DNA of 64,000 nucleotides from Candidatus Gastranaerophilales bacterium (GTDB lineage: Bacteria > Cyanobacteriota > Vampirovibrionia > Gastranaerophilales > Gastranaerophilaceae): NCBI GenBank assembly GCA_944326015.1, contig CALVCJ010000001.1, positions 1,068 through 65,067 of the forward strand. The letters are read 5' to 3'. A program made the translations under genes and the position numbers. Positions 3,488 through 61,692 of this stretch are shown here, in pieces. The notes under the pieces are model-generated. The model saw only the letters and a list, made by a program, of their open reading frames with translations. It was not told the DNA's origin and searched no databases. Every line of letters begins with the position of its first letter. Within the stretch, counting starts at the first letter, position 1.

Positions 3488-3681
3488 ATCCTAGTATTCC
3501 TTTTACATATACACAATACAAGATGCAGTTTAAATTAACATCAATCAAGCGGGTTAAGTATATAAATCTATAGTATGATATATTTATTAAGCTTTGTAAC
3601 AAAAGAAAGCTACTCTGAAATTCAAGGTAAAAATATTTTTTTATATCTATGTAAGACATGAGATATTAACAGGAGCAGAAT

Positions 3682-4050
3682 ATGAATGATATAACAGCAA
3701 AATCATCGGATTCAAGAACAAACAATATCAGAAACACAAAACCTTCAGAATCAGTTGAGACAGCAGGCTCTCTTGCAATGAATAAGTTTCAAAGCCTTTT
3801 TGAAACAAATGTTTATGATATGTTTTCTTCAAGTAATCCGTTTACAGTTGACTATACTCAATATTCTGACAGCGGATCAAATATTGCATTTACCGGCGGC
3901 TTTTTAAGCAGTTTTTCAAATGCAGTTTCAATATTATCTTCAAGCAGCAGTTTTTCAGATGGTGGTTCGTTCTCAGGTACCTCTTGCGGAGGCGGATTTA
4001 CAGGCGGCAGTTGCACAGGATCTTCAGGCGGTTTTACCTCAGTATGTTAA
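3682..4050 (+). CDS. Ser/Gly-rich hypothetical protein (122 aa)
   Basis: AGGAG RBS; low-complexity C-terminus GGSFSGTSCGGGFTGGSCTGSSGGFTSVC. Confidence 0.7.
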   Translation: MNDITAKSSDSRTNNIRNTKPSESVETAGSLAMNKFQSLFETNVYDMFSSSNPFTVDYTQYSDSGSNIAFTGGFLSSFSNAVSILSSSSSFSDGGSFSGTSCGGGFTGGSCTGSSGGFTSVC

Positions 4051-8054: not shown

Positions 8055-9803
8055 TTAAATTTCAGCGATCTTTTCTACTTCAATATCACTAATAAGTTCG
8101 GAATATGATAAGACTTTTATATTCTCTATATAACTGCAAAGCAAATCAAATAAAGGTTTTCTAATATCCGGTGATACTAGCAGAACAACATCATTTTTAT
8201 GATTCTTAATTTTTGATGCTGCATTAACAAATGAAAGCACAAGCTGTTCAATTTCGTCAGGTGTTAGTTTAAATATTACTCCTAACTCTGCCCATAAAAG
8301 GGCATCACCGAGTTTTCGCTCAGTTTCAGGTTTTAAAGTCAGCGCATATAAAATTCGTTTATCATTTAACTTTATCGAAAACTTTTCACATATTTGAGCT
8401 CTTAACTCAACGCGCAGCTGGGTTAGTAAAATTTCCGGGCTTTTACTGAATCTTGCAAAATCACATAACCTTTCAAATATTAATATTACATCTGTTACAG
8501 GAACTTCTTCTCTTATAAGCCAGACAAGTATCCGTCTTAAATCTACTGCAGATATAAGTTCCGGAATCAAATCATTTACAAGTGTAGGATTTTCCGATCT
8601 CACTAGTTCCATATATTTTATAACATCTTTTTTCGTCAAAATATCATTTACATGCTTTATAAAACACTTTCTCATATGTTCTAATACAACTTTAGAGATA
8701 TCTTCTTGAGAAGCAAATTTATCAACAAAAAATGTATCACGTCTTATAGAACGAACGTAAATCCCGAATTCATAAGGTTTATAGCTTGCATCATCAAGAC
8801 ATCTGACTTTAGGAATTATATAACCTAATTCATCAGCAAGTTCTTTTCGCAAATTTCCAATTAAAGGCAAAAGTACATTTTTCAATTCAGGATCAGCATA
8901 ATCAACAAGAGCACTGCCCATTCTAACAGATAAAATATCAACCCCGAGCCTTTCAAACATCAAATTCGGACAGTTAAATTTAAAACTATCTACATTTTCG
9001 TCAGATTCAGTAATCAGCTTATTTTTTTTACTATTATTTACCTGTTCAAGCACATCATAATTAGTAAGCACAATAAACCAGCATACAATCGAAAGGCTTG
9101 AAATAAATAGCCCGAGATATCTTACATATTTTTCTATCTGCTCAAAACCGGCCAGGTAAAGAAATAATCCAATCAAAACAAATATTAAAAATACGCAGAA
9201 CTCCATCGGATGTTTTTTAATATCATTAAATAATCCTTCATTTTGCTTTGACACACGCTTAAAATCATCTTTATTTATGTAGTCAGATGAAATATTATCA
9301 ATTTTGCCTGAATAATTGTCATAATGCGACTGCATAATAGCAAATTTATAAGTATCATAGTCAATTATTTTATCGTCATACAATTCTTTAACTGAGTCTT
9401 TATAAATTTTTGAAACAGGAATTTCTGTCAGTTGAATATAATCACTCATTGTATAATGTTCAAGAGTCAGCGCATTATCATGATTTTTGTTAATAAGGTA
9501 CTCATAGATTTCGGAATTAATTTTTTTTATAATTATATCTATGAAATCTGCGGGAATTTGAGCGTAAATAAGATCAATAACTCTGTGAAATGTCCATTCC
9601 GCCACAGTTTGCGTTATAATTTCACATGCTTCATTGTTAACATCAGAATCATCATATAATAATTTTGCGGTTTCTGTTGAAAATTTATACACATAGTCCC
9701 ATACAAAATCTTTCCAATACTTATCAAAATCTACCGGACAATCAGCAACAAGCTTAAATCTTAATTTATTTATAAAATCTTTGTACTTAAAGTCCTTAGT
9801 CAT
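8055..9803 (-). CDS. protein with FlhA/FHIPEP cytoplasmic-domain-like C-terminus, a lineage-specific N-terminus and 2 TM helices
   Basis: C-terminus LSVRMGSALV...LRKELADELGYIIPKVRCLDD...LIREEVPVTDVILIFE...VVLLVSPDIRKPLF...KVLSYSEL matches FlhA-C. The 8-TM FlhA N-domain is absent. Confidence 0.7.
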   Translation of the reverse strand: MTKDFKYKDFINKLRFKLVADCPVDFDKYWKDFVWDYVYKFSTETAKLLYDDSDVNNEACEIITQTVAEWTFHRVIDLIYAQIPADFIDIIIKKINSEIYEYLINKNHDNALTLEHYTMSDYIQLTEIPVSKIYKDSVKELYDDKIIDYDTYKFAIMQSHYDNYSGKIDNISSDYINKDDFKRVSKQNEGLFNDIKKHPMEFCVFLIFVLIGLFLYLAGFEQIEKYVRYLGLFISSLSIVCWFIVLTNYDVLEQVNNSKKNKLITESDENVDSFKFNCPNLMFERLGVDILSVRMGSALVDYADPELKNVLLPLIGNLRKELADELGYIIPKVRCLDDASYKPYEFGIYVRSIRRDTFFVDKFASQEDISKVVLEHMRKCFIKHVNDILTKKDVIKYMELVRSENPTLVNDLIPELISAVDLRRILVWLIREEVPVTDVILIFERLCDFARFSKSPEILLTQLRVELRAQICEKFSIKLNDKRILYALTLKPETERKLGDALLWAELGVIFKLTPDEIEQLVLSFVNAASKIKNHKNDVVLLVSPDIRKPLFDLLCSYIENIKVLSYSELISDIEVEKIAEI

Positions 9804-9854
9804 AAATATAATTATATGCCAGCACACAGTAAATTTCAAATTGTAAATAATTAA

Positions 9855-10920: not shown

Positions 10921-11175
10921 GCCGTGCTCCACGGGGAATTGCAATCCCTTGACCCGAAGTTAACGCGGGGTGCAGAGCCTGTTGTGAGGATACGGTAGGT
11001 AACTTTGATAAATATATTATTGTTGACGTTTAAGGATATGGCGGCGCAAGCTGTCGAACCGTGTCAGGATGGAAACATAGCAGCACTAAGACAATCCTTG
11101 CGGGTGTCGTATTGTTAAAAAGAGATAATATGTTTAAAAATTTTATTTATTGTGTTCGATAGACAGTGGCACGGC
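10921..11175 (+). ncRNA. ffs: signal recognition particle RNA, large (Alu-containing) bacterial type
   Basis: Helix-8 motif GTCAGG-ATG-GAAA-CAT-AGCAGCA; 5' GCCGTGCT..CGGGGA Alu-like start; 3' GCACGGC pairs with the 5' end, then a T-run; about 255 nt, resembling Bacillus scRNA. Confidence 0.9.
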
Positions 11176-35907: not shown

Positions 35908-36987
35908 TTGGCAGGTACCCTGAAATTGATTAATTCTACAACATCTAATCCAAATAAAACCAATAAATATCAGGATCCGTTAAACAAACCAATTCCTGTA
36001 CTAATGTCGTATTCTAACGAATTAGGAACAGCTATATACGAAATTGCCCCGAGACTTGGGACGACTCTTTGGGCGCCCTCATTAATGTATCTGGGAGCTG
36101 ATATTTACGACAAGTACAAAAATGACAAAGACAGCTACAACCCTAGCGGGAAAAGAGCGTTTAAAAGAGCTGTTTTTCAAGGCATGACATCTGTCATTGC
36201 ACTTCCTTTATTAATATTTGCAGGTCAATGTATTGTATCACCGCTTGCCAAAATGGATAAATACGGAATAAGCGGAAATGCAAAAGATGCCGTTTACAAA
36301 CATACAAAAAGTGTTATTGATCAGATTCCGCCTGAAATACTTGACAATTACTCTAAATTAAAAGAAACAATAATGTTAACGCTTAAAAATAAAATTGAGT
36401 CAAGAGCACATGAAAAATCAAATATCAATATCTTTAAAAGATTATATTATATCTTCTTCACAGAAAGATACGAAGTTCTGAGCAGCAAAAAAGACAAAGT
36501 TATGATTTTTGCAGTAGATAATGCTAAGAACATATTTAATATTATAACTGGACTAAAAAATAATGAAAAGGATAAAGTTCCAAAAAATATATTAAGTAAA
36601 TACAAAAAACTGCTTCCGGAAATGAAAGAAATGTATCATGTTGCCGATTATTCGCATAATGCAGCAAAAGCAGCTTTAAAGCAATATCAGTCTTCTCTGA
36701 TATTTAAAAATAAACTACTTAAAACATTAGGTGGATTTGGAGCACTAATATTGTTTGCAGAACCTGTTAACGATTTTGTTGAAAAGTATATTATGAAAAA
36801 ATATATTAATCCCGGAATAGATCAGATTAACTTTAATTTTGTAAACGAATCAAAGTTAAAAAATATATTCAATGATATGAAAAACAATATTAATCACTCC
36901 TATACGGATAAAAGATTGACATCAAACCTCATTGCGAAATTAAAGAGTCCGCGAGAATCGAAGTCAGCGGCTGCGGAATCTCAGTAA
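35908..36987 (+). CDS. hypothetical membrane-associated protein, MTP18/MTFP1-like
   Basis: SYSNELG..IYEIAP...SLMYLGADIYDKY...AVFQGMTSVIALP and KTLGGFGALILFAEPVNDFVE follow the MTP18 pattern as recalled. Confidence 0.55.
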   Translation: MAGTLKLINSTTSNPNKTNKYQDPLNKPIPVLMSYSNELGTAIYEIAPRLGTTLWAPSLMYLGADIYDKYKNDKDSYNPSGKRAFKRAVFQGMTSVIALPLLIFAGQCIVSPLAKMDKYGISGNAKDAVYKHTKSVIDQIPPEILDNYSKLKETIMLTLKNKIESRAHEKSNINIFKRLYYIFFTERYEVLSSKKDKVMIFAVDNAKNIFNIITGLKNNEKDKVPKNILSKYKKLLPEMKEMYHVADYSHNAAKAALKQYQSSLIFKNKLLKTLGGFGALILFAEPVNDFVEKYIMKKYINPGIDQINFNFVNESKLKNIFNDMKNNINHSYTDKRLTSNLIAKLKSPRESKSAAAESQ

Positions 36988-38281
36988 CATACAAATTATC
37001 AACTAGCTTTGCAACAGTTTTTACAGACAAAGCCGATGTTCGTGCAGGAGTAAGTTCTACCACAGATGTAACGCGTCTTGAGCCATCCGGAAGTTTATTT
37101 ATTTGAACAATATAGTCAAAATCTGAAAGGACCTTTGTTTTTGCCATTTTTTCAGGCATATGTTCAAAACAAACATAAGAAGAGATCAGTTTTGACAAAG
37201 CTGCATCAATACAATTCGCACGCAAAGTATATATTCCACCTTTAATTTCTGACAGACTGCTAACCGGAAAATTTAAATCACATACAACATAGTCCGGTTC
37301 AAGTTTTAAAATACTTGACACTAGCTTTTGATAATCAGGGTGCCTACTATTAATCATAAATTTTATTAGGGAATTATTTGTATGCGAAATTTCAGAAGCT
37401 TCCTCCATAAGAACAATTCTTTTAAGAGCTGGCATTGAATTAAGTAATACACCTGTCAGAGTAGTTTTTCCTGAATTTATATCTCCCGATATAACAATAT
37501 TCTTATTTGAATTAACAACAGAAATTAAAAAATCCAGTATTTCTTTTGTCATCATACTTTTATTAAGTAAAAAATTTATATCAAAATTTAAAGATTTTCT
37601 TATAGAAATATTTACCCCTGAGCCAGATAACGGCGGTAGAATAATCGTTACAAAATAATTCTTTATTTTTAAATTTAAAATATTTTTATGCACATCAGCA
37701 ATATTAATATCTGCCATATCATAAATATGATTTAAAAGAAAATCAATATGACTTTGTTCGGGTTTTATTTCAGTATTCAACACCTTGCCGCCTATTTCTA
37801 TATAAATACCTGATAAACCGTTCACAAAAACAGCATCAACATTATCTCTGTCAAGTAAATTTTGCACAGGGCCGAAACCTTCGACAAAACGATATAATTT
37901 ATCAGTTAATAAATCGCGTTCATTATCCTCAAGCTCAATGTGATCAACACTAAGCTTATTAAAAATAAAATTCCTGATAAGTTCTCTACGTTTTGAAAGA
38001 TCATATTCATACCAAACGGGAGTGAAAGATATTTTTTCCAAAAGGGCATTTGTTATAGCTTCCTGAGTTTCTAAAAAATTATCATGTTTTTCTTCAATAT
38101 CAGCAGTAATTTCCTGATGTACTAGTTCTTGTAGAGGAGGTTGCTCCATAAGTTCCACACTAATATTTTGCGTTTTCTTCTGCGGAAAAACAAATTTTCT
38201 TGGAGGCTGCTGTTCTGGAACTGCATTTTCCTGCTCTATACGCTTTTTAAATCTGCTGCTTAATCTACTACTATCTGACAT
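36929..38281 (-). CDS. CpaF/TadA-family secretion ATPase with degenerate catalytic motifs
   Basis: GFGPVQNLLDRDNVDAVFVNG; ISIRK; GDINSGKT; DYIVQINKLPDGSRRVTSV; directly downstream of cpaE. Confidence 0.8.
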   Translation of the reverse strand: MSDSSRLSSRFKKRIEQENAVPEQQPPRKFVFPQKKTQNISVELMEQPPLQELVHQEITADIEEKHDNFLETQEAITNALLEKISFTPVWYEYDLSKRRELIRNFIFNKLSVDHIELEDNERDLLTDKLYRFVEGFGPVQNLLDRDNVDAVFVNGLSGIYIEIGGKVLNTEIKPEQSHIDFLLNHIYDMADINIADVHKNILNLKIKNYFVTIILPPLSGSGVNISIRKSLNFDINFLLNKSMMTKEILDFLISVVNSNKNIVISGDINSGKTTLTGVLLNSMPALKRIVLMEEASEISHTNNSLIKFMINSRHPDYQKLVSSILKLEPDYVVCDLNFPVSSLSEIKGGIYTLRANCIDAALSKLISSYVCFEHMPEKMAKTKVLSDFDYIVQINKLPDGSRRVTSVVELTPARTSALSVKTVAKLVDNLYVTEIPQPLTSILADSLISQ

Positions 38282-38284
38282 AAT

Positions 38285-39460
38285 CTAAAACCTTTCCTGT
38301 CTTTTCATAAATTTTTGGCGGTAAACACTATCAGAAACTAATAAGGCTAAATTCTTAAAACTCAATGCAAGATTAGAGTCTGGGTTAATCTCAGGCACAG
38401 GAATTCCTTTATTAATTGCCGCCATCATGGTAAAATAGTTATTAGGAATTTTCCAATAAATTTTTTGACCTAGAGCTTCCTCTACATCTTCAGCTTTAAT
38501 TTCATCATTTTCCATATAACGATTAATTAAAACTTGAATTTTACTCTGATCAAAGCCAAGTTTTTCAAATAATTCCAAGCACCTCTGACAATTTCGTATT
38601 GCTGGTAAATTTACTATGGTAACTAGAAAAACTAGATCAGAATTTTCAATAGCATTCAAAGCACTTTTATCAAAACCACCTGATGTATCTACAACAACAT
38701 AAGAAAATGCTTTCCTCAATATATCAAAAAGTTTTGTAATATCATTTGGTAAAACATTTTCTGCACTGTTAAAATACGGAGGATCTGCAAGAATATATAA
38801 ACTTGTATCTTTATACTTTTCAAGAGTCGAAAGCAGAAATTTTTCATTTATTTTGTCCGGATTATTAAGCATATACGAGATATTAAAAGAAGGTTTTATA
38901 TCAAAAAAAGCAGCTATATCACCTAATTGAAAATTTAAATCAATAAGTGCCACATTTTCTTTTGTAGTTTTAGCAAGCTCAAAAGCAAGATTAGAAGCTA
39001 TTGATGTCTTACCTATTCCGCCTTTGTTTGAGTACACTGTAATAATTCGGCATTTAGATTTTTTAGAAATGACGTCTGATAAATTATCATAAACTTTTTT
39101 TAAAACTTCAAAAAATTCTTCTTTAATAACAGGCAATGCAAGAAAATCGCAAGCTCCTATTCTCATTGCTCTAATTACAATATCAACTGAGGGTTTATCA
39201 GAAATAACAACGACTTTGCACTTTGGAAATTCCGATGCTATTTTGGATACAAAGTTCAAGGCTTGTTCCTGATAATCAGAGATATCCATTATCACTAAAG
39301 ATTTATCAAGCTCACAAACAGCGTTATAAGCCTTTGTAAAATCAGATGTTTGAGCAAGAAAAGAAAATTTTTCAAACTCTCTGAGATAAGATTTTAAAAG
39401 TTCGCCTGTATTTAAATGTCCTGTAACAACAATAGTTTGAATATACTTATCCATAGGCAT
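38285..39460 (-). CDS. cpaE: CpaE/TadZ-like pilus assembly protein (REC-like + MinD/ParA ATPase)
   Basis: AMRIGACDFL; SNKGGIGKTSIASNLA; LIDLNFQLGD; AAINKGIP. Confidence 0.88.
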   Translation of the reverse strand: MPMDKYIQTIVVTGHLNTGELLKSYLREFEKFSFLAQTSDFTKAYNAVCELDKSLVIMDISDYQEQALNFVSKIASEFPKCKVVVISDKPSVDIVIRAMRIGACDFLALPVIKEEFFEVLKKVYDNLSDVISKKSKCRIITVYSNKGGIGKTSIASNLAFELAKTTKENVALIDLNFQLGDIAAFFDIKPSFNISYMLNNPDKINEKFLLSTLEKYKDTSLYILADPPYFNSAENVLPNDITKLFDILRKAFSYVVVDTSGGFDKSALNAIENSDLVFLVTIVNLPAIRNCQRCLELFEKLGFDQSKIQVLINRYMENDEIKAEDVEEALGQKIYWKIPNNYFTMMAAINKGIPVPEINPDSNLALSFKNLALLVSDSVYRQKFMKRQERF

Positions 39461-39591
39461 ATTGTAACATGTTTTATTAAATGAAGCAAATCTATAAAAC
39501 AAAAATACTAAAATCTAAAAGGATAATCATCAGGGATATTATTATATGAAATGTATTGCTTGTTTATGACTGAGATGATATAATTGTTAGT

Positions 39592-41367
39592 ATGAATAAT
39601 GTAAGTTTGACAACTCAAAACAGACTGATTATTTCAGGGCTTGTTATAAGTACAGTGCTTATTGTTGTAATTGCTGTTTTCGCAATCTTTAACATACAAA
39701 ACAATTTAAACAAAGGCTATCAAAATTTCGGACAAATAGTTTCCAAGGCTCTGGCTATTGAATGCGCTGAACTTACCATTAATGCACCGGCTTCCAAAGT
39801 AAAACAAACGCTCAAGGCACATGTCGACGCAATTGTCAGCTCACACAATGATATTGTTTTTATTGAACTAAGAAATAAAGATGGAAAACTTATTTATAAA
39901 TCCGGCAACTCTGGTCAAATGTCTAAAGTTCCTAACATTGTAGTAAGTTCACCTATGATGACAGGCAATGACGTAAATGTTGGATATGTCACCGTAGGTC
40001 TGTCCGGTAATATTATAAATAAAATTTCATCAACTACAAGGGCTTCGCTTTTCTTTGTATTTACAGTAGCCTGGATAGTTTTTGCATTTGTAATATTAAT
40101 TAACACATATCTAATTACAAGAGAACTTAGAGTTTTGCATGAAGGAGTTCAAAAAATTTCAACCGGAGAATTCGGATATACAATTAAAGATAAAGATGTA
40201 AGTTCCGAAGTTAAAGAGCTTTTTAATTCTTTTAATAACATGTCTAACAGACTTCACATATATGAAGAGCAGAATATAGAACAATTAACGCTTGAAAGGA
40301 ACAAGCTTGAAGCTGTATTAATGAGTATAGCAAATGGGGTTGTTGTATGTGATAACAATGATAATGTAGTGCTGGTCAATAACCATGCACACAAACTTCT
40401 TGAACTTGAAGATGATCAGATGATTGGGACCAAAATTCAAAATTACATTGATACAGAAGGTAATTATTGCTTTAAAGATAAAATTGAAGAATTTAAAGAT
40501 ACTCCACTAGAAGTTATGGAAAATAAACCGCTTGAATTTAATATTCAGGTAGATAAACGTACTATCAAATCAATAATATCACCAATGTTTACTAGAAATA
40601 AAGAATATGTAGGCTACATTATAGTATTAATTGACATGACAAAAGAAGCTGAAATGGATGCTATGCGTTCAACATTTATATCAAACGTTTCGCATGAATT
40701 AAGAACTCCTGTAACAGTTTTAAGAAGCTATATTGACACACTTTACAATTACGGCAATGAATTTGATTATAAAACCCAAAAAGAATTTATCGGAACCATT
40801 AATCAAGAAATTATAAGGCTTAACAGGATGGTTAATGACATACTTGATTTTTCACGCATGGAAGCTAATGCTGAAATGGAAAAATCACTAAACAGTATTT
40901 ACGAAGTTGTCGATAATTGCGTAAATCAAATTCAAGCACTGACCAAAGATCATAATCTTACGATAACTGTCACCAAGCAGGACGGTATACCCAACTTCCT
41001 ATTTAACTACGATGGTATAGAAAGAGCACTTACAAATCTTTTGTCAAACGCAATAAAATATTCACCTGAAAACGGCCAAATTGAAGTAAATTTAGAAAAA
41101 GACAATGATAATGCAGTAATAACTGTTACAGATCAAGGATGCGGAATTGCTCCAGAATATCAGAAAAAGATTTTTGATAGATTTTACAGGGTCGAAAATA
41201 ATATTCACACAATAAAAGGGACAGGACTCGGATTACACCTTGTAAAGCAAACCATAGAAAAATACCATGGCGGAAAAGTATTTTTACATTCACAGATAGG
41301 ACATGGTTCAACATTCGGCTTTTCACTTCCAACACAGGTTGTTGATGACCTAAAAAGTTATGTTTAA
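39592..41367 (+). CDS. nblS: sensor histidine kinase TM-HAMP-PAS-HisKA-HATPase, Hik33/NblS-like
   Basis: Two TMs, HAMP, LTLERNKLEAVLMSIANG, SNVSHELRTP, FYRVENNIHTIKGTGLGL; architecture and motifs parallel cyanobacterial Hik33. Confidence 0.75.
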   Translation: MNNVSLTTQNRLIISGLVISTVLIVVIAVFAIFNIQNNLNKGYQNFGQIVSKALAIECAELTINAPASKVKQTLKAHVDAIVSSHNDIVFIELRNKDGKLIYKSGNSGQMSKVPNIVVSSPMMTGNDVNVGYVTVGLSGNIINKISSTTRASLFFVFTVAWIVFAFVILINTYLITRELRVLHEGVQKISTGEFGYTIKDKDVSSEVKELFNSFNNMSNRLHIYEEQNIEQLTLERNKLEAVLMSIANGVVVCDNNDNVVLVNNHAHKLLELEDDQMIGTKIQNYIDTEGNYCFKDKIEEFKDTPLEVMENKPLEFNIQVDKRTIKSIISPMFTRNKEYVGYIIVLIDMTKEAEMDAMRSTFISNVSHELRTPVTVLRSYIDTLYNYGNEFDYKTQKEFIGTINQEIIRLNRMVNDILDFSRMEANAEMEKSLNSIYEVVDNCVNQIQALTKDHNLTITVTKQDGIPNFLFNYDGIERALTNLLSNAIKYSPENGQIEVNLEKDNDNAVITVTDQGCGIAPEYQKKIFDRFYRVENNIHTIKGTGLGLHLVKQTIEKYHGGKVFLHSQIGHGSTFGFSLPTQVVDDLKSYV

Positions 41368-43875: not shown

Positions 43876-45186
43876 ATGAAAGCAAACAAAATTTACTTTG
43901 TAGATGTAACAAACAGAGATGGTGTACAAACTTCACGTTTAGGACTTGCAAAACTCGAAAAAACAATGATTAATCTCATGCTTGATGATATGGGGATTAC
44001 CCAGTCAGAATTCGGTTTCCCTACAACAAAGCACGAAATAAATTATCTTAATGGCAACCTTGAACTTGCGGAAAGAAAAGTTATTTCAAGGACAAAGCTC
44101 TCAGGATGGATGAGAGGTATAGCTGAGGATGTTGAACTTTCCTTCAAAAATGTCCCAAAATTAAAAAACCTTAACCTATCACAATCCACATCAGAACAAA
44201 TGATTAACGGGAAATATCTCGGGAAAAAAACTCCGCGTGACATCATTAATATGACCTGTGAAGCCGTGGAGTGCGCAATTTCTCTCGGAGCAGAAGATAT
44301 AGGTATTAACGCGGAAGATGCCTCCAGAAGCGATATAGACTTTCTAATAAAATACGCAACAGAAGCAAAAAAATGCGGAGCAAGACGTTTCAGATACTGT
44401 GATACGCTTGGCTACGAAGACCCTCAAACTGCATATGAAAGAATTTTTAAAATAGCAAGAGCAATAGAAATGCCTGTGGAAGTTCACTATCATAATGATC
44501 TTGGAATGGCTGCGGCATGTTCTGTAATGGGGGCAAAAGCGGCGATAGACGCCGGGGTTGATGCTTATATAAACACTGCAATTAACGGAATGGGAGAACG
44601 TGCCGGTAATGCCGACCTTGCCTCCTGTCTTCTTGCAATACTAAAATCAGCAGGCTTTAAAAACAAATATAAAATTGATCCTAATATTGATCTTAGCAAA
44701 ATATGGAAACTTGCTAAATACACATCTTATGCATTTGGAGTTCCTATCCCCATAAACCAGCCTGCTGTTGGTGACAACGCGTTTGCTCATGAATCAGGAA
44801 TTCACGCAGACGGAGCTTTAAAAGACAGAAGAAATTATGAATTGTACGATTTTGAAGAACTTGGCAGAGGGGACCCAGAAATAATTGAGACAGGAAGAAT
44901 GATTACAACAGGTGAATACGGTGGCATAAAAGGTTTTAGAAATGTCTATAATAACCTGGAAATAGAGTTCAAAGACGAACATGAAGCAAGAAATATTCTT
45001 GAACTTGTCAGATACGCAAATGTTCACACCCAAAAACCACTTACTTCTGGGGAATTAAGATTTATATATTACTATCCTGATATAGCAGCCAAAATTATGA
45101 CAGTCTCTCCATACTATGAACCGGAAGGAGCAATTAAAGAAAGAATGGAAGCAGGTATTGTTACCAACCCGCAAAAAATTGTATAG
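43876..45186 (+). CDS. LeuA/NifV-family Claisen-condensing synthase (homocitrate or Re-citrate synthase-like)
   Basis: DVTNRDGVQ; YCDTLG; VHYHNDLGMA; GMGERAGNA; FAHESGIHADG. Confidence 0.85.
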   Translation: MKANKIYFVDVTNRDGVQTSRLGLAKLEKTMINLMLDDMGITQSEFGFPTTKHEINYLNGNLELAERKVISRTKLSGWMRGIAEDVELSFKNVPKLKNLNLSQSTSEQMINGKYLGKKTPRDIINMTCEAVECAISLGAEDIGINAEDASRSDIDFLIKYATEAKKCGARRFRYCDTLGYEDPQTAYERIFKIARAIEMPVEVHYHNDLGMAAACSVMGAKAAIDAGVDAYINTAINGMGERAGNADLASCLLAILKSAGFKNKYKIDPNIDLSKIWKLAKYTSYAFGVPIPINQPAVGDNAFAHESGIHADGALKDRRNYELYDFEELGRGDPEIIETGRMITTGEYGGIKGFRNVYNNLEIEFKDEHEARNILELVRYANVHTQKPLTSGELRFIYYYPDIAAKIMTVSPYYEPEGAIKERMEAGIVTNPQKIV

Positions 45187-45215
45187 AGTATCTTTTAGCC
45201 ATATATTTTATCCTT

Positions 45216-45233
45216 TTTGTAACGAAATGTAAC
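45216..45233 (-). promoter_or_regulatory. HLR1-type direct repeat (RpaB/OmpR-family site)
   Basis: Minus strand GTTACATT-TC-GTTACAAA, an exact match to (G/T)TTACA(T/A)(T/A)-N2 repeat, 85 bp upstream of the 45319 gene. Confidence 0.6.
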
Positions 45234-45318
45234 AGAAAATTATTCAAAAGTTAAAGAAAATTAAAATACATTCCGTAATAAAAAATATAAGGAAACAAAC
45301 AACGAAAGGGATAAAGTC

Positions 45319-46380
45319 ATGGGTATGGCAGCATCGCAGGCAAGGTTTTTAGGACTGACTGCGAGAAAAACAAATGTTGAATATGAAGGGCAGCAGATTA
45401 ATCAGCAGCGTACAACTTTGTCAAATCAATCTGCAAACTACTACAACGATCTGCTCGGTATGACAGTGCCTGTCCCCCCGTCAGTTGCAGACTACACCAA
45501 AACTGTTTACACATTTGAAGACGGAGCTTTGCAAAATTCAATATCAACAATGATAGCACAGAATGACGGGACTTATCTAATAAGTTATACTTCCTCCTGG
45601 ACAGATGACTTCGCAGTTGTATCTGCAGGACAGTCCATCGTAACCAGAAAGGGAACAGAAGGTGCTTATACCTACAATGTCGGAGCTAAAGAATTAAGAC
45701 AAATGCAAACACTTGAGGACGACGATATTGATGGTATGTCAGAAGAAGAATTGGAAACTCTCAGAGGAAATGATGAGTATTTGAAAACACTCTCAGATGA
45801 CCAGCTGAAAAAATTATTGAAAGAAGAAAATAATTACATATCCATGCTTAACGCGCAATACGGACAAGCAGATTGGATGGTAAGATATGTTGAAAATACG
45901 ACAACAAAAACCTGGACACCGTATTTCTGTAAAAAGCAGGTGCTTGATTCTGCAATTTATTCCAATACAGGCTCTTCTCAAAGCAGCATACCTGTATATA
46001 CAACAGGATCCACTGACAGAACTGAAGAAGTTAAAGGGGTAACTGCACGACTTGAACAGGATTCAACAGGAAGAATTATTAGCGTAACGCTTAAGCCGGG
46101 CGATCCTGACGAAGTTACCTACTCTGTTACAACAAACACTGTAACAGATCAGGCTGCATATGATGATGCTATGAACCAGTATGAATATGATAAGTATCAA
46201 TATGATCAAACAGTTCAAGAAATTAATGCTAAAATTGAGATTATTCAGGCTCAGGATAAAAATCTTGAATTGCGCTTAAAACAGCTTGATACTGAACAGG
46301 ATGCTATTCAAACTGAAATGGATGCAGTACAGAAAGTTATTGAAAAAAATACTGAATCAACATTTAAAACATTCGGTTAA
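45319..46380 (+). CDS. lineage-specific protein with coiled-coil termini (MGMAASQARFL...TFKTFG)
   Basis: Helical Q/E/N-rich N- and C-termini flanking a T/S/D/Y-rich middle; no signal peptide. Confidence 0.8.
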   Translation: MGMAASQARFLGLTARKTNVEYEGQQINQQRTTLSNQSANYYNDLLGMTVPVPPSVADYTKTVYTFEDGALQNSISTMIAQNDGTYLISYTSSWTDDFAVVSAGQSIVTRKGTEGAYTYNVGAKELRQMQTLEDDDIDGMSEEELETLRGNDEYLKTLSDDQLKKLLKEENNYISMLNAQYGQADWMVRYVENTTTKTWTPYFCKKQVLDSAIYSNTGSSQSSIPVYTTGSTDRTEEVKGVTARLEQDSTGRIISVTLKPGDPDEVTYSVTTNTVTDQAAYDDAMNQYEYDKYQYDQTVQEINAKIEIIQAQDKNLELRLKQLDTEQDAIQTEMDAVQKVIEKNTESTFKTFG

Positions 46381-46496
46381 ACAAAAACTAAAAATTATTA
46401 ATTATATATATTGTTTCCCTTTTTTCATATTTTTATTAAAACGACTTTTGTCGTTTTTTTTTTATGTTAAAATAATAAAAAAAAAGGAGAATGGTT

Positions 46497-47738
46497 ATGG
46501 GACAGACTTTAGCAGAAAAAATCATATCAGCACATGCCGAAAAAAAAGTAAAAGCAGGAGAACTTGTAATTGCAAAAGTTGATGTTTGCGCTGTTCAAGA
46601 TGGTACAGGGCCTTTAACCGTTCAAGAATTTAAAAAACTCGGAAAAAACAAACTTAATAACCCTGAAAGAACTATTTTATTTATTGATCACGCTTCACCA
46701 AGTCCGCGGAAAGAATTATCAAATACACACACCGTTTTAAGAGAATTTTCCAAAGAATATAAAGCAATACTTTCAGATGTTGGAGCAGGCGTATGCCACC
46801 AGAGGCTTGTCGAAACTTTTATCAATCCAGGAGAAATTTTGGTGGGTGCAGATTCACATACGTGCACATCAGGGGCAGTTGGTGCGTTCGCGACCGGCAT
46901 GGGCTCGACAGATATTGCAGTTGCAATGGCTCTTGGTAAAACATGGCTCAAAGTTCCTGCAACATTTAAAATCGAAGTTACAGGTAAATTTAAAAAAGGT
47001 ATTTGTTCCAAAGATTTGATGCTTCATTTAATAGGACTTATAGGAGCAGACGGTGCAACATATAAAGCACTGGAATTCTGCGGTGAAACAATTGAAAATA
47101 TGCCAATGTCAGAAAGATTTACCCTTGCCAATATGGCTGTTGAAGCAGGAGCAAAAGCAGGACTATTTGCGACTGATGACAAAACTAAAGAGTTTTTGAA
47201 ATCAAGAGGTCGCGAAGACAAATTTAAGTTAATTAAACCTGATGACAATGCAATATATGAAAGAGTGATAAAAATTAATGCAGAAGAGATTGACTACACT
47301 GTATCTTGCCCGCATACAGTTGACAACACAAAGCACGTTAGCGAGTTAAAAGATATAAAAGTTGATCAGGTATTTATCGGAACCTGTACAAATGGAAGAA
47401 TAGAAGATTTACGCATTGCTGCAGAAATATTAAAAGGGAAAAAAGTAAATTCAAATGTACGGCTTCTTATTTGTCCGGCATCAAAAGATGTTTATCTTCA
47501 AGCACTGGAAGAAGGCCTTATAACGATATTCGTAAAAGCAAATGCAGCAATACTTCCTCCGGGATGCGGTCCATGCGTGGGAGTGCATTCCGGAACTCTT
47601 GCGGATGGAGAGGTTTGTCTTGCAACCCAAAATAGAAATTTTCAAGGCAGAATGGGTAATGTTAAAGGCTCAATTTATCTATCATCGCCTTATGTAGCTG
47701 CTTATACAGCTTTATCAGGCTACATATGTGCAGCTTAA
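46497..47738 (+). CDS. leuC: 3-isopropylmalate dehydratase/homoaconitase-family large subunit (LeuC/HacA type)
   Basis: MGQTLAEKII; GVCHQ; GADSHTCT; FIGTCTNGR; PGCGPC; NRNFQGRMG. Substrate is uncertain. Confidence 0.85.
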   Translation: MGQTLAEKIISAHAEKKVKAGELVIAKVDVCAVQDGTGPLTVQEFKKLGKNKLNNPERTILFIDHASPSPRKELSNTHTVLREFSKEYKAILSDVGAGVCHQRLVETFINPGEILVGADSHTCTSGAVGAFATGMGSTDIAVAMALGKTWLKVPATFKIEVTGKFKKGICSKDLMLHLIGLIGADGATYKALEFCGETIENMPMSERFTLANMAVEAGAKAGLFATDDKTKEFLKSRGREDKFKLIKPDDNAIYERVIKINAEEIDYTVSCPHTVDNTKHVSELKDIKVDQVFIGTCTNGRIEDLRIAAEILKGKKVNSNVRLLICPASKDVYLQALEEGLITIFVKANAAILPPGCGPCVGVHSGTLADGEVCLATQNRNFQGRMGNVKGSIYLSSPYVAAYTALSGYICAA

Positions 47739-48975: not shown

Positions 48976-49638
48976 ATTCCCTGAATGTTTAATTGAAGCT
49001 AGCTTCATATATGCATTCATGGAAATTTCTCCCGGATATAACGTTTTTTCGTTTTGTTCCCGATTGGTATTTTTCATACTGTCAAGCGCCTGTTTTTGTT
49101 TAGCTGAAGCATACTTATTTCGTACAAGAGGTGTAACAAGATTGCTGGAAAGAATTGATCCTGTAAGACCAGCTATAACTTCAGCTCCATTTTTAAATGG
49201 TTTAAATTTTGACGCAATTTCAGAATTATAATTATCAAGTTTTGTTATATCAAAATTCCAATCACCAGCATAAACTTTTCCTTCAACTCTTTTCTGACCT
49301 TTTTCAAGAACATGACCTCCTTTTTTTAAAAAATTTGAAATTTCGGCTGTTCTTAATTTTGCGGTTTTAACGAGCTTTGCTCCTATATATTTCACTCCGC
49401 TTGTAAGGGTGTAAAAAGATACTATATTAACAACTGCATCAGCAATTTCTTGAGGTATTAAAAAGACTTTTTGTTCTTTTGAAATTTTATCGTTAAAAAT
49501 AACGGCATAAACCTGAGCAAGCGAAGACAAAATCCATCCTATAACACCGGTATGTACAAGCATGGAGCCAGGATTTTCGCCATAATTCTTATATATATAA
49601 GATTTAAAACCATTCCACATTTTTGCAGGAGAAAACAT
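48964..49638 (-). CDS. hypothetical membrane protein (224 aa)
   Basis: ORF with 3 hydrophobic helices; its ATG overlaps the upstream TAA. Confidence 0.75.
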   Translation of the reverse strand: MFSPAKMWNGFKSYIYKNYGENPGSMLVHTGVIGWILSSLAQVYAVIFNDKISKEQKVFLIPQEIADAVVNIVSFYTLTSGVKYIGAKLVKTAKLRTAEISNFLKKGGHVLEKGQKRVEGKVYAGDWNFDITKLDNYNSEIASKFKPFKNGAEVIAGLTGSILSSNLVTPLVRNKYASAKQKQALDSMKNTNREQNEKTLYPGEISMNAYMKLASIKHSGNLKV

Positions 49639-50183
49639 TATTTATTCTCTCCTTTCTTTTGCATCCTTATAAAATTATTTGTAAGAAATTTTGTGAGAGG
49701 TGCATCAATAAGAAAATTTGTAAACACCATAGCAACCAGCGAAAGAATTGTCCCCATAGCATTGCGGTATTGTTCCAGAGCATCTTTATTTGACGGATCA
49801 AGATTTTTTGGAGTCAGACACTGTTTTAAATTTTTTATAAATGGCTTAGTATTTGCTGGAATTTCTGAAGCAGTTTTTGACATTGCTGCAATCCCTTTTA
49901 TAAATCCAGCCCTTAAAGCAACACCAGTAAGTGTTCCTGCAATAATTTTTGCACATGTTCTTGCAACAGCAACTTTACGCGTTTTATCATCAACACTTTT
50001 ATTTTTCCAGTCTATATATGGCTGCATGACAATTGCTGTAACACCTAAAATAGCTCTCTGATGGGGTGATGACCACTTTTTACCTATATATACGATTTTA
50101 TCGATTACTTTATCTTTGCTGACTTGCATTGAAGGTAAACGATTATAAAAATTCTTTGCAATATTTAACTTTACAGCTGCCAT
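49638..50183 (-). CDS. hypothetical membrane protein (181 aa)
   Basis: ORF with basic amphipathic helices; translationally coupled to the downstream ORF. Confidence 0.75.
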   Translation of the reverse strand: MAAVKLNIAKNFYNRLPSMQVSKDKVIDKIVYIGKKWSSPHQRAILGVTAIVMQPYIDWKNKSVDDKTRKVAVARTCAKIIAGTLTGVALRAGFIKGIAAMSKTASEIPANTKPFIKNLKQCLTPKNLDPSNKDALEQYRNAMGTILSLVAMVFTNFLIDAPLTKFLTNNFIRMQKKGENK

Positions 50184-50324
50184 AACACAATACCCATAGC
50201 TATAAAAATTGTAAATAAAAAAAATTGTCTTAATATAAGGGGAAATTAATAAATATTTACAATCTTAATTAATAGGGACTACTATACAACAGAAAAATTA
50301 TTTTGTAAAGAATTTAGAACAAAT

Positions 50325-58019: not shown

Positions 58020-59684
58020 TTACATCTGGGTACTCAAAAAAGCAAGGTTTTCAGGTGTAAGCATATTTTCATATTGCTGGTTGAAAGAAGGATTAGCTTT
58101 TGCCCTTTCAGCTGCAATACGTGCTTTGCGCCTTGCTTCAGATTTATTTGTCATATATATATTCAAATTTGGAATACCTACACCAAGCACAAGTCCAGAA
58201 TACAAGTAGCCTGCAATCTGAGCAATACTTAATGCTCTGAGTTTACCTTTTGTTTCTTTACGAATAGCTTCTGCAACCTGTGGCGATGCAATTTTATTGA
58301 GCATACTTTTAAAACTTAAAGCTTTTCCATTCTCTATAGTATCAATTCCTGCAGCTTTTAACCCTCTGTGCAAAACTTCATCACGAGTTACCAGAGGTGC
58401 CTTTATAATTTTATTAAAGAAACCTTTACCATGCTCTTTTTCACTGTAATTAAGAAGGCTTTGATCCATTGAATTCGCAACCATTTTTGCAACAAAATTA
58501 CCTAAAACAAGCCAGTTAAAGAAACCAAGAACATCTTTAACAACAGATTCTCTGAGCTCATCTTTATCGCGCGCAACTATAAATCTCGACATTATAGTAA
58601 CACCATATATAAATTTAAATTGATCAAGTGTTGGAACTAGCCCCCTGAACTGAATTTTTTTCAATAATCCCTTCAATCCACTGCGCATTCCTATTGTTGC
58701 AAGAATTCCTCCGCCAAAAACACCTGCTGCGGCAACTTTCATAGCCTTAAAACCAAGAGAATTATCTTTTTCACGACCTTCTACTCCGACAAAGCCGTCG
58801 CTGCCAGTTTTCTTTTTTGTAAGATAAATATTTAACGGCTGAATTGACATCCCGACAGCAGAAGCAATACCAAGTCCTAAAATTGAACGTCCAAGGTTCA
58901 TACGCTTCAAAGCAGCAAGATATTTATTATCTTTTAACTCACTTTTAAAAGCATTTTTGATGTTTTCGTTTTCATTAACAAATGTCCTTGAAACATTATA
59001 AACACTTTCAAGTAAGTTGGCTATAGAAGTTGTTTTTTGATCCTGAGCAAGTCTGAAAGAGTTTTCAGATCCAGTAGAATGAGTTATAACTGATTGTGCA
59101 TAGGCCTTTAAATCTTTTGAAATAGTAACAGGTGCATTTTTTGAGTTTAAAACATCACTAAATTTATTAACAACATCCTTTATCTTATCTTCCGGAATTT
59201 TTTTCCAATCATCACCGACACGTGTTTCCGTTCCTGAGAAAACATCTCTCAAATAGGCTTTAACAGTGTCTTGCTTATTCTTTGGCAGTGCTGATTTAAT
59301 CTGCTTATCCCACGCCTTTGCAAGAACAGATAGAGTTTCATCATCAACAAACAATTTATGTGCTTTAATTCCATAATGTTTGTTTAATGCAGTAGCTAAA
59401 GCCAAACCTGCAATAGTACCATATACACCTACAAGAGAATGATTTATGGTACCGGAAGCTTCTCTTCTACCAGTTTCCATACCAGCAGCAGGACCTCTAC
59501 TAACAAAATCTACAGTTGTTCTAGGAATTACCATTGAAGCAAGATCAACAGCGTTAGCACCCCAAGCCTGGTTAGTATCAAGAAATCTTAAAAAAACATC
59601 TACTGAACCTGAGAAATTGATATTATCCTTTTTGTATTCATTATTTTGTTGTAATCGGGGTGATGTTATATTTTGAACTTGCAT
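58020..59684 (-). CDS. lineage-specific multi-pass membrane protein (paralog of 59698..61398)
   Basis: DLASMVIPRT...METGRREASG; DELRESVVKDVLGF; several hydrophobic helices. Confidence 0.8.
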   Translation of the reverse strand: MQVQNITSPRLQQNNEYKKDNINFSGSVDVFLRFLDTNQAWGANAVDLASMVIPRTTVDFVSRGPAAGMETGRREASGTINHSLVGVYGTIAGLALATALNKHYGIKAHKLFVDDETLSVLAKAWDKQIKSALPKNKQDTVKAYLRDVFSGTETRVGDDWKKIPEDKIKDVVNKFSDVLNSKNAPVTISKDLKAYAQSVITHSTGSENSFRLAQDQKTTSIANLLESVYNVSRTFVNENENIKNAFKSELKDNKYLAALKRMNLGRSILGLGIASAVGMSIQPLNIYLTKKKTGSDGFVGVEGREKDNSLGFKAMKVAAAGVFGGGILATIGMRSGLKGLLKKIQFRGLVPTLDQFKFIYGVTIMSRFIVARDKDELRESVVKDVLGFFNWLVLGNFVAKMVANSMDQSLLNYSEKEHGKGFFNKIIKAPLVTRDEVLHRGLKAAGIDTIENGKALSFKSMLNKIASPQVAEAIRKETKGKLRALSIAQIAGYLYSGLVLGVGIPNLNIYMTNKSEARRKARIAAERAKANPSFNQQYENMLTPENLAFLSTQM

Positions 59685-59697
59685 AATTAACTACTCC

Positions 59698-61398
59698 TTA
59701 CGAATTGACAAATGAGCTAAACATTGAGTTACTTTTTATTATTGACTTTGAAAATGCATATTCTGCTGAAGTCGTTGCATCTGCAAAATTAGAATTTTCA
59801 CCAGACTGAGCAGTATTTAAGTTCTTTTGCGCATTTAAATTCGAGAGTTCTTCTGCATGCTTTTTGTTGGTTTTCGACCTTGTATAAATAGGGATAAATA
59901 CACCCAATGCCAGTAGAGAGAATAAAATATTACCTATCTGGCATACTGTTCTCAGACGTTTATCTTCGATTGTTTTTAATTCGTCTGAAGATTTAAGTGA
60001 AGTATGTTTGGCCCAGTGCCAGAATTTTTTAAATACATTTGCATCTTTATCAGGTGCTTCCTTCAACCTGTTTATCAAATGAACACCTTTGTTTTTATTC
60101 TTATGTTCTAAAAATGTTGCAATTCCTTTGGCTACATAATCTCCAAGGAAATAAAAACTTGAAAACGTTGCAATATCACGAACAGTAGCTTCTCGTAATT
60201 CATTTCTGTCTTCCGAAGCTCCCATACGGCTTGCAAAAGTAGCTGTCGAAATTATACGCGCCTGATCCATTGTCGGGAAAATACCTTTAAACTGAAAAAT
60301 ATTTTTCCACACCGGTCGATCCATAAACATTGAAAGACAACATACACCTAACATTGAACCAATTGAAATAAATTTTTGAACCAGTAGCTCCTGCTTTTCC
60401 TTAGGGCTCAACTCTTTATGTTCACTGTCCTTTGCAAAATCCTTATAAATCGGAGCACCTTTCTTGCCTGAAACTTTATGTGTTATCCATCTATTTATAG
60501 GCTGCATTGAAATTGCAAGCGGTATAATTAAGCCCAACCCTCCTATGCTCTTCCAATTTACAAGCTTTTTAGCACTACTAAAGTACTTCGAAAGTATATT
60601 AGAGTCAGTAATATTTTCTTTAACAACCCCTCTAACCATTTTTACGGTATCTTCACACAGCGATTCCAAATTATTGGAGAAAAAGCCTTGATCACCTTTA
60701 AATTTAATATTTTCCGCTATTAAGGTTTCGCTGACAATATCGCGATAAGCTTTCTTAAATGCTTTTGAACTGTATTTATTTGCTTGTGTAAGATTTACAA
60801 GCTCGGTTACAGCATTATGTACTTTTTCATTTCCTATTTTACCTGAAAATTTACCGTCTACATCACGCTGTATTTTCAGTATATCTGCGAAATCTTTAAT
60901 TTCTTTACCATCAATACCAACAAGACTACCCAGTTGGTCACGGAAAGTATTGTATATTTTTTCTTTTTGGTCAATACCTGATGCATCTTTATAATATTTT
61001 TGAATTTTATTAATAGCATCTTCATTTGCCCAGGTATTTATAAGATTTGACTTTTTAAAGCCACTCATTATTGGCCGCTGTAAAAGTCCAGCAACAGCCA
61101 TTACAATAAAACTTGGGATTAAACAATTCACGATAAGTCCGGAAGATTCTCGCCTGAAAGCTTCAAAACCAGCATAACCGTTTGATTCTTTAGTTTCTAC
61201 AATTGTACGCGGAATAATAGCAGTAGATAAATCCAGTACTGAAACATTAATCATAGGTTGTTTTTCACACTGCTGAACAAGCCAAATAGCACCGTCTGCC
61301 AAACCATTAAATGACGGATTAACTTCATTTTTTGCACTACAATACCCTTCCGGGGTATTCTTTTTATTTACACTAGCTATACTAACTTTTTCAATCAT
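59698..61398 (-). CDS. lineage-specific multi-pass membrane protein (paralog of 58020..59684)
   Basis: DLSTAIIPRT...FEAFRRESSG; NELREATVRDIATF. Confidence 0.8.
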   Translation of the reverse strand: MIEKVSIASVNKKNTPEGYCSAKNEVNPSFNGLADGAIWLVQQCEKQPMINVSVLDLSTAIIPRTIVETKESNGYAGFEAFRRESSGLIVNCLIPSFIVMAVAGLLQRPIMSGFKKSNLINTWANEDAINKIQKYYKDASGIDQKEKIYNTFRDQLGSLVGIDGKEIKDFADILKIQRDVDGKFSGKIGNEKVHNAVTELVNLTQANKYSSKAFKKAYRDIVSETLIAENIKFKGDQGFFSNNLESLCEDTVKMVRGVVKENITDSNILSKYFSSAKKLVNWKSIGGLGLIIPLAISMQPINRWITHKVSGKKGAPIYKDFAKDSEHKELSPKEKQELLVQKFISIGSMLGVCCLSMFMDRPVWKNIFQFKGIFPTMDQARIISTATFASRMGASEDRNELREATVRDIATFSSFYFLGDYVAKGIATFLEHKNKNKGVHLINRLKEAPDKDANVFKKFWHWAKHTSLKSSDELKTIEDKRLRTVCQIGNILFSLLALGVFIPIYTRSKTNKKHAEELSNLNAQKNLNTAQSGENSNFADATTSAEYAFSKSIIKSNSMFSSFVNS

Positions 61399-61632
61399 AA
61401 TAAAGTCTGGTCTTAAATTTCATACCTATTATAACAATGATACATTCTTATTAAAAGACGTGCAGAAAAAAAATTGCCACTAAAATTGTTCATGTTAAGG
61501 ATATATTAAGAGTCAAATGTGTTTTTTTTATTAAAAATAAAATATATTTCAAAAAATTTGTCAAAAATAAATAAAAAAAAACGCTAAAGAATAATTTAAA
61601 TAAACAAAATTTTTACAAAAGAACTAAAAAAA

Positions 61633-61650
61633 AATGTAAAAAATTGTAAC
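61633..61650 (-). promoter_or_regulatory. HLR1-type direct repeat (RpaB/OmpR-family site)
   Basis: Minus strand GTTACAAT-TT-TTTACATT, an exact match, about 235 bp upstream of the 59698..61398 start. Confidence 0.55.
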
Positions 61651-61692
61651 AAATACATTTAAAACTATAGGATAATATAGAAACAGTATATA

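Follow-up and report, generated by a model that had tools for sequence, protein, structure and literature searches.

The DNA analysed here is a 64-kb window (the whole stretch, 64,000 nucleotides) whose protein homologs belong to Candidatus Gastranaerophilales/Gastranaerophilaceae, gut Melainabacteria (Vampirovibrionia). The window is AT-rich, with about 33% G+C, and the sequencing runs in which it is contained are chicken-gut metagenomes. Upstream of an orphan gene at 45319-46380 lies a copy of HLR1, the element bound in cyanobacteria by the response regulator RpaB. The HLR1 consensus, (G/T)TTACA(T/A)(T/A)-N2-(G/T)TTACA(T/A)(T/A), consists of two octamers in direct repeat, separated by a gap of 2 nucleotides (nt). 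Both strands of the whole window were searched with the corresponding pattern, KTTACAWWNNKTTACAWW, and two sequences fit this definition exactly, GTTACATTTCGTTACAAA at 45216-45233 (site 1) and GTTACAATTTTTTACATT at 61633-61650 (site 2). Both are read on the minus strand, and both are intergenic, residing in the spacers 45187-45318 and 61399-61692, respectively. An earlier reading by a model, made from the letters alone (the sequence-only reading), had described the exact repeat of site 1 and counted two intergenic matches, and the pattern search bears it out on both points. The features found at site 1 are the following.

45216-45233, minus strand: site 1, HLR1-type direct repeat, exact match, with half-sites at 45226-45233 (GTTACATT) and 45216-45223 (GTTACAAA)
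45252-45256, plus strand: -35 element TAAAG, sigma-28 (FliA/SigD)-type, part of the sole strict TAAAG-N14-17-KCCG match in the window
45272-45279, plus strand: -10 element TCCGTAAT, family consensus GCCGTAA/GCCGATAA
45286-45288, plus strand: predicted transcription start, placed 7-9 nt past the -10 element according to the usual sigma-28 geometry
45289-45314, plus strand: 5' leader with two GGA motifs, AAGGAAAC at 45289-45296 and GAAAGGGATAA at 45304-45314, the second being the ribosome-binding site
45319-46380, plus strand: target gene 1, encoding a 353-residue orphan protein (MGMAASQAR...) of a multi-copy family
46438-46457, plus strand: terminator-like hairpin followed by a T-run, which ends the monocistronic unit of 45319-46380

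On the gene (plus) strand site 1 reads TTTGTAACGAAATGTAAC, namely TTTGTAAC-GA-AATGTAAC, and is thus inverted relative to gene 45319-46380. The repeat ends 86 nt before the ATG at 45319, and a spacer of 18 nt separates it from the sigma-28-type promoter (TAAAG-N16-TCCGTAAT). The consensus of sigma-28 (FliA/SigD) promoters is TAAA-N15-GCCGATAA. Relative to the predicted start, the centre of site 1 would be located near -62. The inverted orientation and the coupled promoter had both gone unnoticed in the sequence-only reading. Rfam and tRNA scans gave no match in the spacer of either site. A palindrome of the NtcA or CRP type was also considered, and dropped on inspection by eye because the element is a direct repeat.

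Exact HLR1 matches are rarely expected in DNA of this composition. A mononucleotide model yields 0.027 matches, in keeping with the figure of about 0.03 estimated earlier, and dinucleotide shuffles of the whole window yield 0.02. When the intergenic segments alone are considered, the expectation is 0.004 by local composition; when each segment is dinucleotide-shuffled separately it is 0.023, and none of 300 shuffles gave more than one match. Intergenic regions also host 24 single half-sites, against 7.5 expected, and 7 matches carrying at most 2 mismatches were found in the window spacers, against 2.5 +/- 1.6 in the shuffles. Sites with 2 mismatches lie at 2488-2505, 3583-3600 and 50246-50263, 63-99 nt 5' of the ATG of the open reading frames 1629-2417, 3682-4050 and 49638-50183, all of them lineage-specific; all three sites are inverted like site 1, and none has a sigma-28 promoter downstream.

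The excess extends to DNA outside the window. Seventy-six loci around rpaB from gut Melainabacteria, 555 kb in all, were picked without regard to the motif. They contain 7 exact HLR1 boxes against 0.24 expected, an enrichment of about 29-fold (dinucleotide shuffles in 150-bp blocks; maximum 2 in 100). All these boxes are intergenic, and several are located 80-105 nt before the ATG of lineage-specific genes, inverted like site 1. Extrapolation from this rate gives about 25 exact boxes per 2-Mb genome. Intergenic enrichment over an AT-rich background, on which the earlier proposal had been made to depend, is hence seen both in the window spacers (2 vs 0.023) and in the independent DNA (7 vs 0.24).

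The organization of the region around site 1 was compared in homologs of gene 45319-46380. Eighty homologous loci were fetched, taking one genome per species, and the 76 with enough upstream sequence were compared. TAAAG followed after 13-16 nt by (G)CCG(T/A)(A/T)A is present in all 76 loci, with a 16-nt spacer in 69 of them, and TAAAG is placed 62-73 nt 5' of the ATG. The best HLR1-like 18-mer begins exactly 36 nt 5' of TAAAG in 61 loci, and runs opposite to the gene in 66. Mismatches to the HLR1 consensus number 0 in 4 loci, 1 in 13, 2 in 31, 3 in 17 and 4 in 11. Across paralogs site 1 is a degenerate HLR1, with a median of 2 mismatches, and exact copies number only four, that of the window included. 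The family consensus is TTTGTWAC-gAAa-TrTTAM. Conserved positions are, among others, T-34 (100%), G-33 (74%), T-32 (96%), A-30 (97%), C-29 (70%), T-24 (95%) and A-20 (99%), so that G and C positions of the repeat are kept as well, beyond A/T. Judging from these alignments, the perfect HLR1 of the window belongs to a class of direct repeats which is conserved at a fixed position, though somewhat degenerate in sequence. In the leader, the GGA motifs AAGGAAAC and GAAAGGGA are kept in nearly all 76 loci, and plausibly represent CsrA-type sites.

The composite module is not confined to the orphan family. At a locus of another genome (L241:5887-5980) an exact HLR1 is followed, after 17 nt, by TAAAG-N16-CCGATAT, ahead of a gene which is unrelated to the 45319-46380 family and starts at a TTG codon (MKITELRQQYPDLFPEF...); the box plus sigma-28 module therefore serves more than one gene family. 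In the closest relatives of the window copy (L001:2900-3000 and L003:2900-3000) a run of ten C residues is located within the -35/-10 spacer, in the context TAAAGTTTTG-C10-GACCGTATAA, and the spacer measures 17 nt rather than 16. The run looks like a slipped-strand switch of phase variation. Among public RNA runs, one metatranscriptome was found, with only contigs or fragments of relatives, and it gave no start information.

Flagellin promoters of the same lineage provide a term of comparison. A canonical flagellin gene (L290) is present among the fetched loci, and relatives of it retrieved from metagenome contigs gave 30 distinct upstream regions. TAAAG-N15-YCG was found in 29 of these, 61-74 nt 5' of the ATG, and the leaders carry two GGA motifs, GAAAGGCAAA and TTGAAAGGAAAT, downstream of the promoter. 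The comparison supports the assignment of TAAAG...CCGATAA as the late-flagellar, sigma-28-type promoter of the lineage. An HLR1-like repeat is missing at the equivalent position of all 30 regions, where even the best candidates show 5-8 mismatches. Since flagellin promoters lack the repeat, the box is not an upstream element common to promoters of this type, and represents an input specific to certain genes.

Additional signals were noticed in these flagellin regions. About 70-85 nt 5' of the ATG, the canonical flagellin promoters (L332-L382) carry a tandem AACTAAAGT-TG-TAAAGT, in which two -35-like elements overlap; a conserved GGAGGATTCT block lies ahead of it. The leader with two GGA motifs is common to the orphan family and the canonical flagellin genes, and matches the design of CsrA-controlled flagellin mRNAs. 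CsrA, FliW and FliS found no match by local tblastn in the fetched DNA; the searches, which also included FliA, returned only an RpoD-like sigma and one canonical flagellin. The sigma factor encoded in the window is of the extracytoplasmic function (ECF) type.

The product of gene 45319-46380 has no Pfam or NCBIfam match. Its homologs, 5875 in number, are all found among gut Melainabacteria. Genomes harbour several copies each; the complete MEL.A1 genome has at least three. The first ~60 and the last ~90 residues are almost invariant throughout the family, while the middle is variable and carries insertions. In the AlphaFold model (pLDDT 84), long helices are seen at the N-terminus (residues 2-46) and at the C-terminus (278-352), along with a central beta domain. 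A Foldseek search with the model returned nothing significant, the best hit being flagellin (E=0.045, TM 0.12), and a profile search of PDB sequences gave no match. By these searches the protein does not qualify as a flagellin, and the likeness is limited to overall topology. MEL.A1 retains its three or more copies though it is reported to lack flagellin, cap and hook-junction genes. The protein may form a new kind of filament, or be secreted as a substrate through the flagellar export system. The gene sits, with its own promoter and terminator, within the interval 43876-47738, between a homocitrate/isopropylmalate-synthase-like gene and an aconitase-family large-subunit gene, which would otherwise look like neighbours in one pathway.

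Site 2 is associated with a different gene and with a different type of promoter, as detailed below.

61633-61650, minus strand: site 2, exact HLR1 (GTTACAATTTTTTACATT), in the same orientation as gene 59698-61398, about 235-252 nt 5' of the ATG
61428-61436, minus strand: extended -10 element TGTTATAAT of a putative proximal sigma-70-type promoter, conserved in the alignment of 47 regions
59698-61398, minus strand: target gene 2, encoding a 566-residue lineage-specific protein of no known NCBIfam family, with a paralog directly downstream (58020-59684)

Orthologs of target gene 2 were found only in Gastranaerophilales and related Melainabacteria; 51 orthologous loci were fetched, and 47 were usable. 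An exact HLR1, in gene orientation, is present in 40 of the 47, 248-264 nt 5' of the ATG, though the proteins are only 51-84% identical. The logo of the site is GTTACAATTATTTACAAA, and its TTACA cores are nearly invariant. A conserved TAAGCGTA lies ahead of the box, and phased T-tracts behind it. The TGTTATAAT element, about 35 nt 5' of the ATG, is the only recognisable promoter of the gene. Site 2 may serve a second promoter, whose -10 would be weak (GATTAT-like, some 50 nt downstream), or act via DNA architecture. The spacer 61399-61692 is 18% G+C, and the T-tracts downstream of the box are phased every 10-11 bp or so, which suggests curved DNA. Besides the TAAGCGTA next to the box, the spacer hosts the conserved blocks TCTTAATATCTCCTTAACATT and GGCAATTTTTTTTTGCC. 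The conservation upstream of orthologs that had been indicated as a check is therefore observed at both places, as a fixed offset in 61 of 76 loci at site 1, and as exact repeats in 40 of 47 at site 2. Both boxes are thus phylogenetic footprints, that of site 2 being the cleaner one. The description of the targets as lineage-specific also holds, neither gene falling into a Pfam or NCBIfam family.

Homologs of RpaA, RpaB and NblS have been reported in Melainabacteria (Di Rienzi et al., PMC3787301), RpaB and NblS of MEL.A1 corresponding to MEL.A1_121 and MEL.A1_199, respectively, and have been described in all three melainabacterial orders (Soo et al., PMC4040986). Melainabacterial sequences are placed by the literature at the root of the NblS clade. 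We searched for rpaB with a degenerate DNA pattern encoding the peptide DTRVVDVHISRLR in AT-rich codons. At least 119 stretches encoding this peptide were found, mostly in Gastranaerophilales, and a response regulator featuring it is present in more than 70 Gastranaerophilales genomes. Both boxes and rpaB coexist in CAG:768, BRZ_DM bin106, CAJMSH, CASDUQ, CAJUPC, CAMPBE and CAMTMK. The Gastranaerophilales proteins are about 250 residues long, and have an intact receiver domain. Over 236 residues, the 249-residue RpaB from Clostridium sp. CAG:768 shares 70% identity with its counterpart in Gloeobacter violaceus. It scores 362.3 bits on the NCBIfam RpaB equivalog NF045944 (cut-off 330), while it remains below the cut-offs of MtrA, YycF/WalR (227 bits, cut-off 340), PhoB and OmpR. 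The ortholog which the earlier reading had left to be identified is hence found in relatives carrying both boxes. Cyanobacterial RpaB has exactly the same segments ERIRLTGMEFSLLEL and DTRVVDVHISRLRSKLE, and these contain the recognition helix. Identical recognition helices usually recognise the same sequence, and RpaB of the lineage should therefore recognise HLR1. A search of 5.8 billion proteins for RpaB returned only cyanobacterial RpaB, and a search of 50% representatives only unnamed clusters. One candidate, P0246, turned out to be a Prochlorococcus protein.

A candidate partner of RpaB is encoded in the window, 4 kb upstream of 45319-46380.

39592-41367, plus strand: NblS/Hik33-like sensor histidine kinase, with the organization transmembrane-HAMP-PAS-HisKA-HATPase

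NblS is the best NCBIfam family for this kinase, although its 338 bits fall well short of the family cut-off of 1000; WalK is next, with 287 bits. The location fits the neighbourhood of MEL.A1_199. The kinase is a weak candidate for the partner of RpaB. The sequence-only reading had gone further, and proposed that the Hik33-RpaB regulon was retained in a non-photosynthetic relative of cyanobacteria and rewired onto new genes. As far as sequence comparisons reach, the proposal is supported by the conserved boxes and the RpaB ortholog; it is the regulator-operator pair that is retained, and not the ancestral target set. The Hik33 part stands only in so far as the kinase is NblS-like, the score being under the cut-off and the WalK score close.

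We consider it probable, from comparative sequence data, that site 1 is a functional HLR1-type operator, bound by RpaB and located upstream of a sigma-28-type promoter, and that site 2 is a second operator. In the model proposed, melainabacterial RpaB, a member of the OmpR family, would bind 45216-45233 as a head-to-tail dimer, one monomer contacting each 8-bp half-site. Going downstream, the module would comprise the box, an 18-nt spacer, a sigma-28-type core (TAAAG-N16-TCCGTAAT) and a leader of some 32 nt carrying the pair of GGA motifs, up to the ATG of the multi-copy orphan gene, whose organization is flagellin-like. In Synechocystis, HLR1 activates when centred from -66 to -45, represses when positioned over the start, and occurs in both orientations (PMC6525291). 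With a predicted centre at about -62, site 1 would fall within the activating range, and RpaB most likely helps to recruit polymerase, acting as an upstream, class I-like activator. RpaB probably modulates the sigma-28-type promoter at site 1, and activation is the sign we favour. A promoter of flagellar type would in this way be made responsive to a signal as well, presumably through phosphorylation of RpaB by the NblS-like kinase. According to this view, the orphan family would be under double control, by the flagellar sigma factor and by the signal reaching RpaB. The repeat at 61633-61650 would be the second operator of RpaB, ahead of the lineage-specific gene 59698-61398.

Several observations weigh against this interpretation. 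Across paralogs, the promoter-proximal half-site of site 1 is usually TGTTAA or TATTAC, rather than TGTAAM, and in one clade the period is 11 bp instead of 10, as in TTTTGTAACA-A-TTTTGTAACA. Site 2 lies upstream of the one promoter recognised for its gene, at a distance of about 200 nt. In the rpaB loci of gut Melainabacteria, no conserved box is found upstream of rpaB itself. FliA was not found by local tblastn of the fetched DNA, and we know of no precedent for RpaB at a sigma-28-type promoter. The evidence for RpaB comes from relatives carrying both boxes, the window spanning only 64 kb, and Melainabacteria also have two RpaA paralogs. Finally, many OmpR-family regulators bind direct repeats of the TGTWAC type, and therefore the motif alone does not single out RpaB.

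The latter points lead to the alternative that fares best, though we regard it as unlikely: the boxes are real, and are bound by another winged-helix regulator, either an RpaA paralog or some other OmpR/WalR/PhoP-like protein. The resemblance to HLR1 would then reflect the general TGTWAC-type specificity of the family. Sites of WalR (TGTWAH-N5-TGTWAH), PhoP (TTAACA repeats) and OmpR (GTTACA/TTTACA) do look alike and are similar in form to HLR1; the site 1 family shows both N4 and N5 spacing, along with TGTTAA variants, and RpaA paralogs are encoded in Melainabacteria. Against this, site 2 fits the HLR1 consensus at every defined position in 40 of 47 lineages, the recognition helix is shared with cyanobacterial RpaB, and the scores assign the lineage protein to RpaB (362 bits) and neither to YycF/WalR (227 bits, cut-off 340) nor to PhoB. 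In addition, the 0.8 Mb of melainabacterial sequence fetched revealed no other regulator of the OmpR type.

It is still less plausible that site 1 is a UP-like or curvature element of strong sigma-28-type promoters, contacting directly the alpha subunit of polymerase. The element is placed just 5' of the -35 element in an AT-rich context, and the B. subtilis flagellin promoter does require a UP element. Yet the flagellin genes of the lineage have the same core promoter and lack the repeat, the G and C positions of the repeat are kept, unlike those of UP elements, and the same class of 18-mer is conserved at site 2, where no sigma-28 promoter is present. A scan for promoters pairs site 1, as the -35, with a -10 on the minus strand (GTTACA-N17-TAAAAT, 9/12 matches), which would make it part of an antisense sigma-70 promoter reading into the 3' end of 43876-45186; this is very improbable, as a matching -10 occurs in just 5 of 76 homologous loci, and promoter-like matches in the region (8, vs 6.6 in shuffles) are not in excess. 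That both matches arose by chance in AT-rich intergenic DNA can be practically dismissed: the motif is rich in A and T, and spacers commonly hold single half-sites because TTTACA is similar to an ordinary -35 hexamer, but about 0.02 exact matches are expected even at intergenic composition, the independent DNA shows a roughly 29-fold excess of exact boxes, and the positional conservation of both sites across dozens of genomes refutes the notion.

The boxes and their putative regulator can be compared with known systems. HLR1 and RpaB (also called Ycf27 or Rre26) operate in cyanobacteria and in plastids of the red lineage. The window sites share with them the consensus and an orthologous regulator with identical recognition helix; in the known system, too, imperfect repeats are tolerated and both orientations are used. 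The predicted centre of site 1 would lie inside the activating range established in Synechocystis (PMC6525291), and an NblS/Hik33-like kinase is encoded nearby. There are differences as well. The host is a non-photosynthetic, fermentative gut bacterium, and the targets are lineage-specific orphan genes, none of which relates to photosynthesis or high light. The core promoter at site 1 is of the sigma-28 type, and not of the group-1/2 sigma-70 type, and site 2 is unusually far (~250 nt) from the start codon.

The boxes of WalR/YycF, PhoP (TTAACA-N5-TTAACA) and OmpR are likewise hexamer or octamer direct repeats, with a period of 10-11 bp, recognised by tandem winged-helix dimers. The reverse complement of HLR1 is TGTAAM-N4-TGTAAM; MtrA and YycF are the NCBIfam families nearest to RpaB, and the kinase of the window scores almost as high on WalK as on NblS. 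In spite of this, the window sites do not qualify as WalR/YycF boxes, as their spacing is N4, while that of WalR is N5, and the lineage regulator fails the cut-offs of YycF (227 bits against 340) and PhoB. Firmicutes flagellin (hag/fliC) genes resemble gene 45319-46380 in the core promoter, TAAA(G)-N15/16-GCCGATAA, in the short leader with two GGA motifs, the second overlapping the ribosome-binding site, and in being multi-copy genes encoding proteins with conserved helices at the ends and a variable middle. They differ because the product of 45319-46380 has no detectable relation to flagellin in sequence or fold, and because the upstream element is here a sequence-specific HLR1-type repeat, rather than an A/T-rich UP element.

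Other features of the window deserve mention. A 594-residue protein is encoded on the minus strand at 8055-9839. In its C-terminal half, residues 381-594 match the FlhA cytoplasmic domain (E=1.7e-46), while the N-terminal half shows no relation to the membrane domain of FlhA. Genes of the Tad-pilus type, encoding a TadA/CpaF/VirB11-like ATPase and a receiver-MinD/CpaE-like protein, reside on the minus strand at 36929-39502, directly upstream of the NblS-like kinase gene and divergent from it. A bacterial large signal recognition particle RNA (Rfam RF01854, 85.5 bits) maps to 10922-11174 on the plus strand. No tRNA genes were found in the 64-kb window.

Cyanobacteria cannot do without RpaB and NblS/Hik33, which hold a central place in their acclimation to light and redox conditions. 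Reports of both proteins in the non-photosynthetic Melainabacteria go back to 2013, and no target or binding site has been described so far; in the library searched, no paper combines HLR1 with Melainabacteria, Vampirovibrionia or Gastranaerophilales. The data reported here provide an operator which is conserved, enriched in the lineage, and tied to identifiable lineage-specific genes, and thus concrete targets that can be tested. They also point to an unusual promoter design, in which an OmpR-family box is coupled to a sigma-28-type core, and draw attention to an abundant orphan family of gut Melainabacteria which is wired like flagellin.

On a more speculative note, it is conceivable, though doubtful, that the NblS-RpaB system predates photosynthesis and ancestrally governed cell-surface or secreted structures, and that in gut Melainabacteria it gates the flagellin-like orphan family. 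Gating would be exerted via HLR1 boxes fused to flagellar (sigma-28-type) promoters, and the orphan family, which persists in the absence of flagellin, for example in MEL.A1, may be a new filament, or be secreted by what remains of the flagellar export apparatus. In some strains, phase variation via the poly-C tract in the promoter spacer would be possible. What RpaB did before photosynthesis is a question that can now be put to the test.

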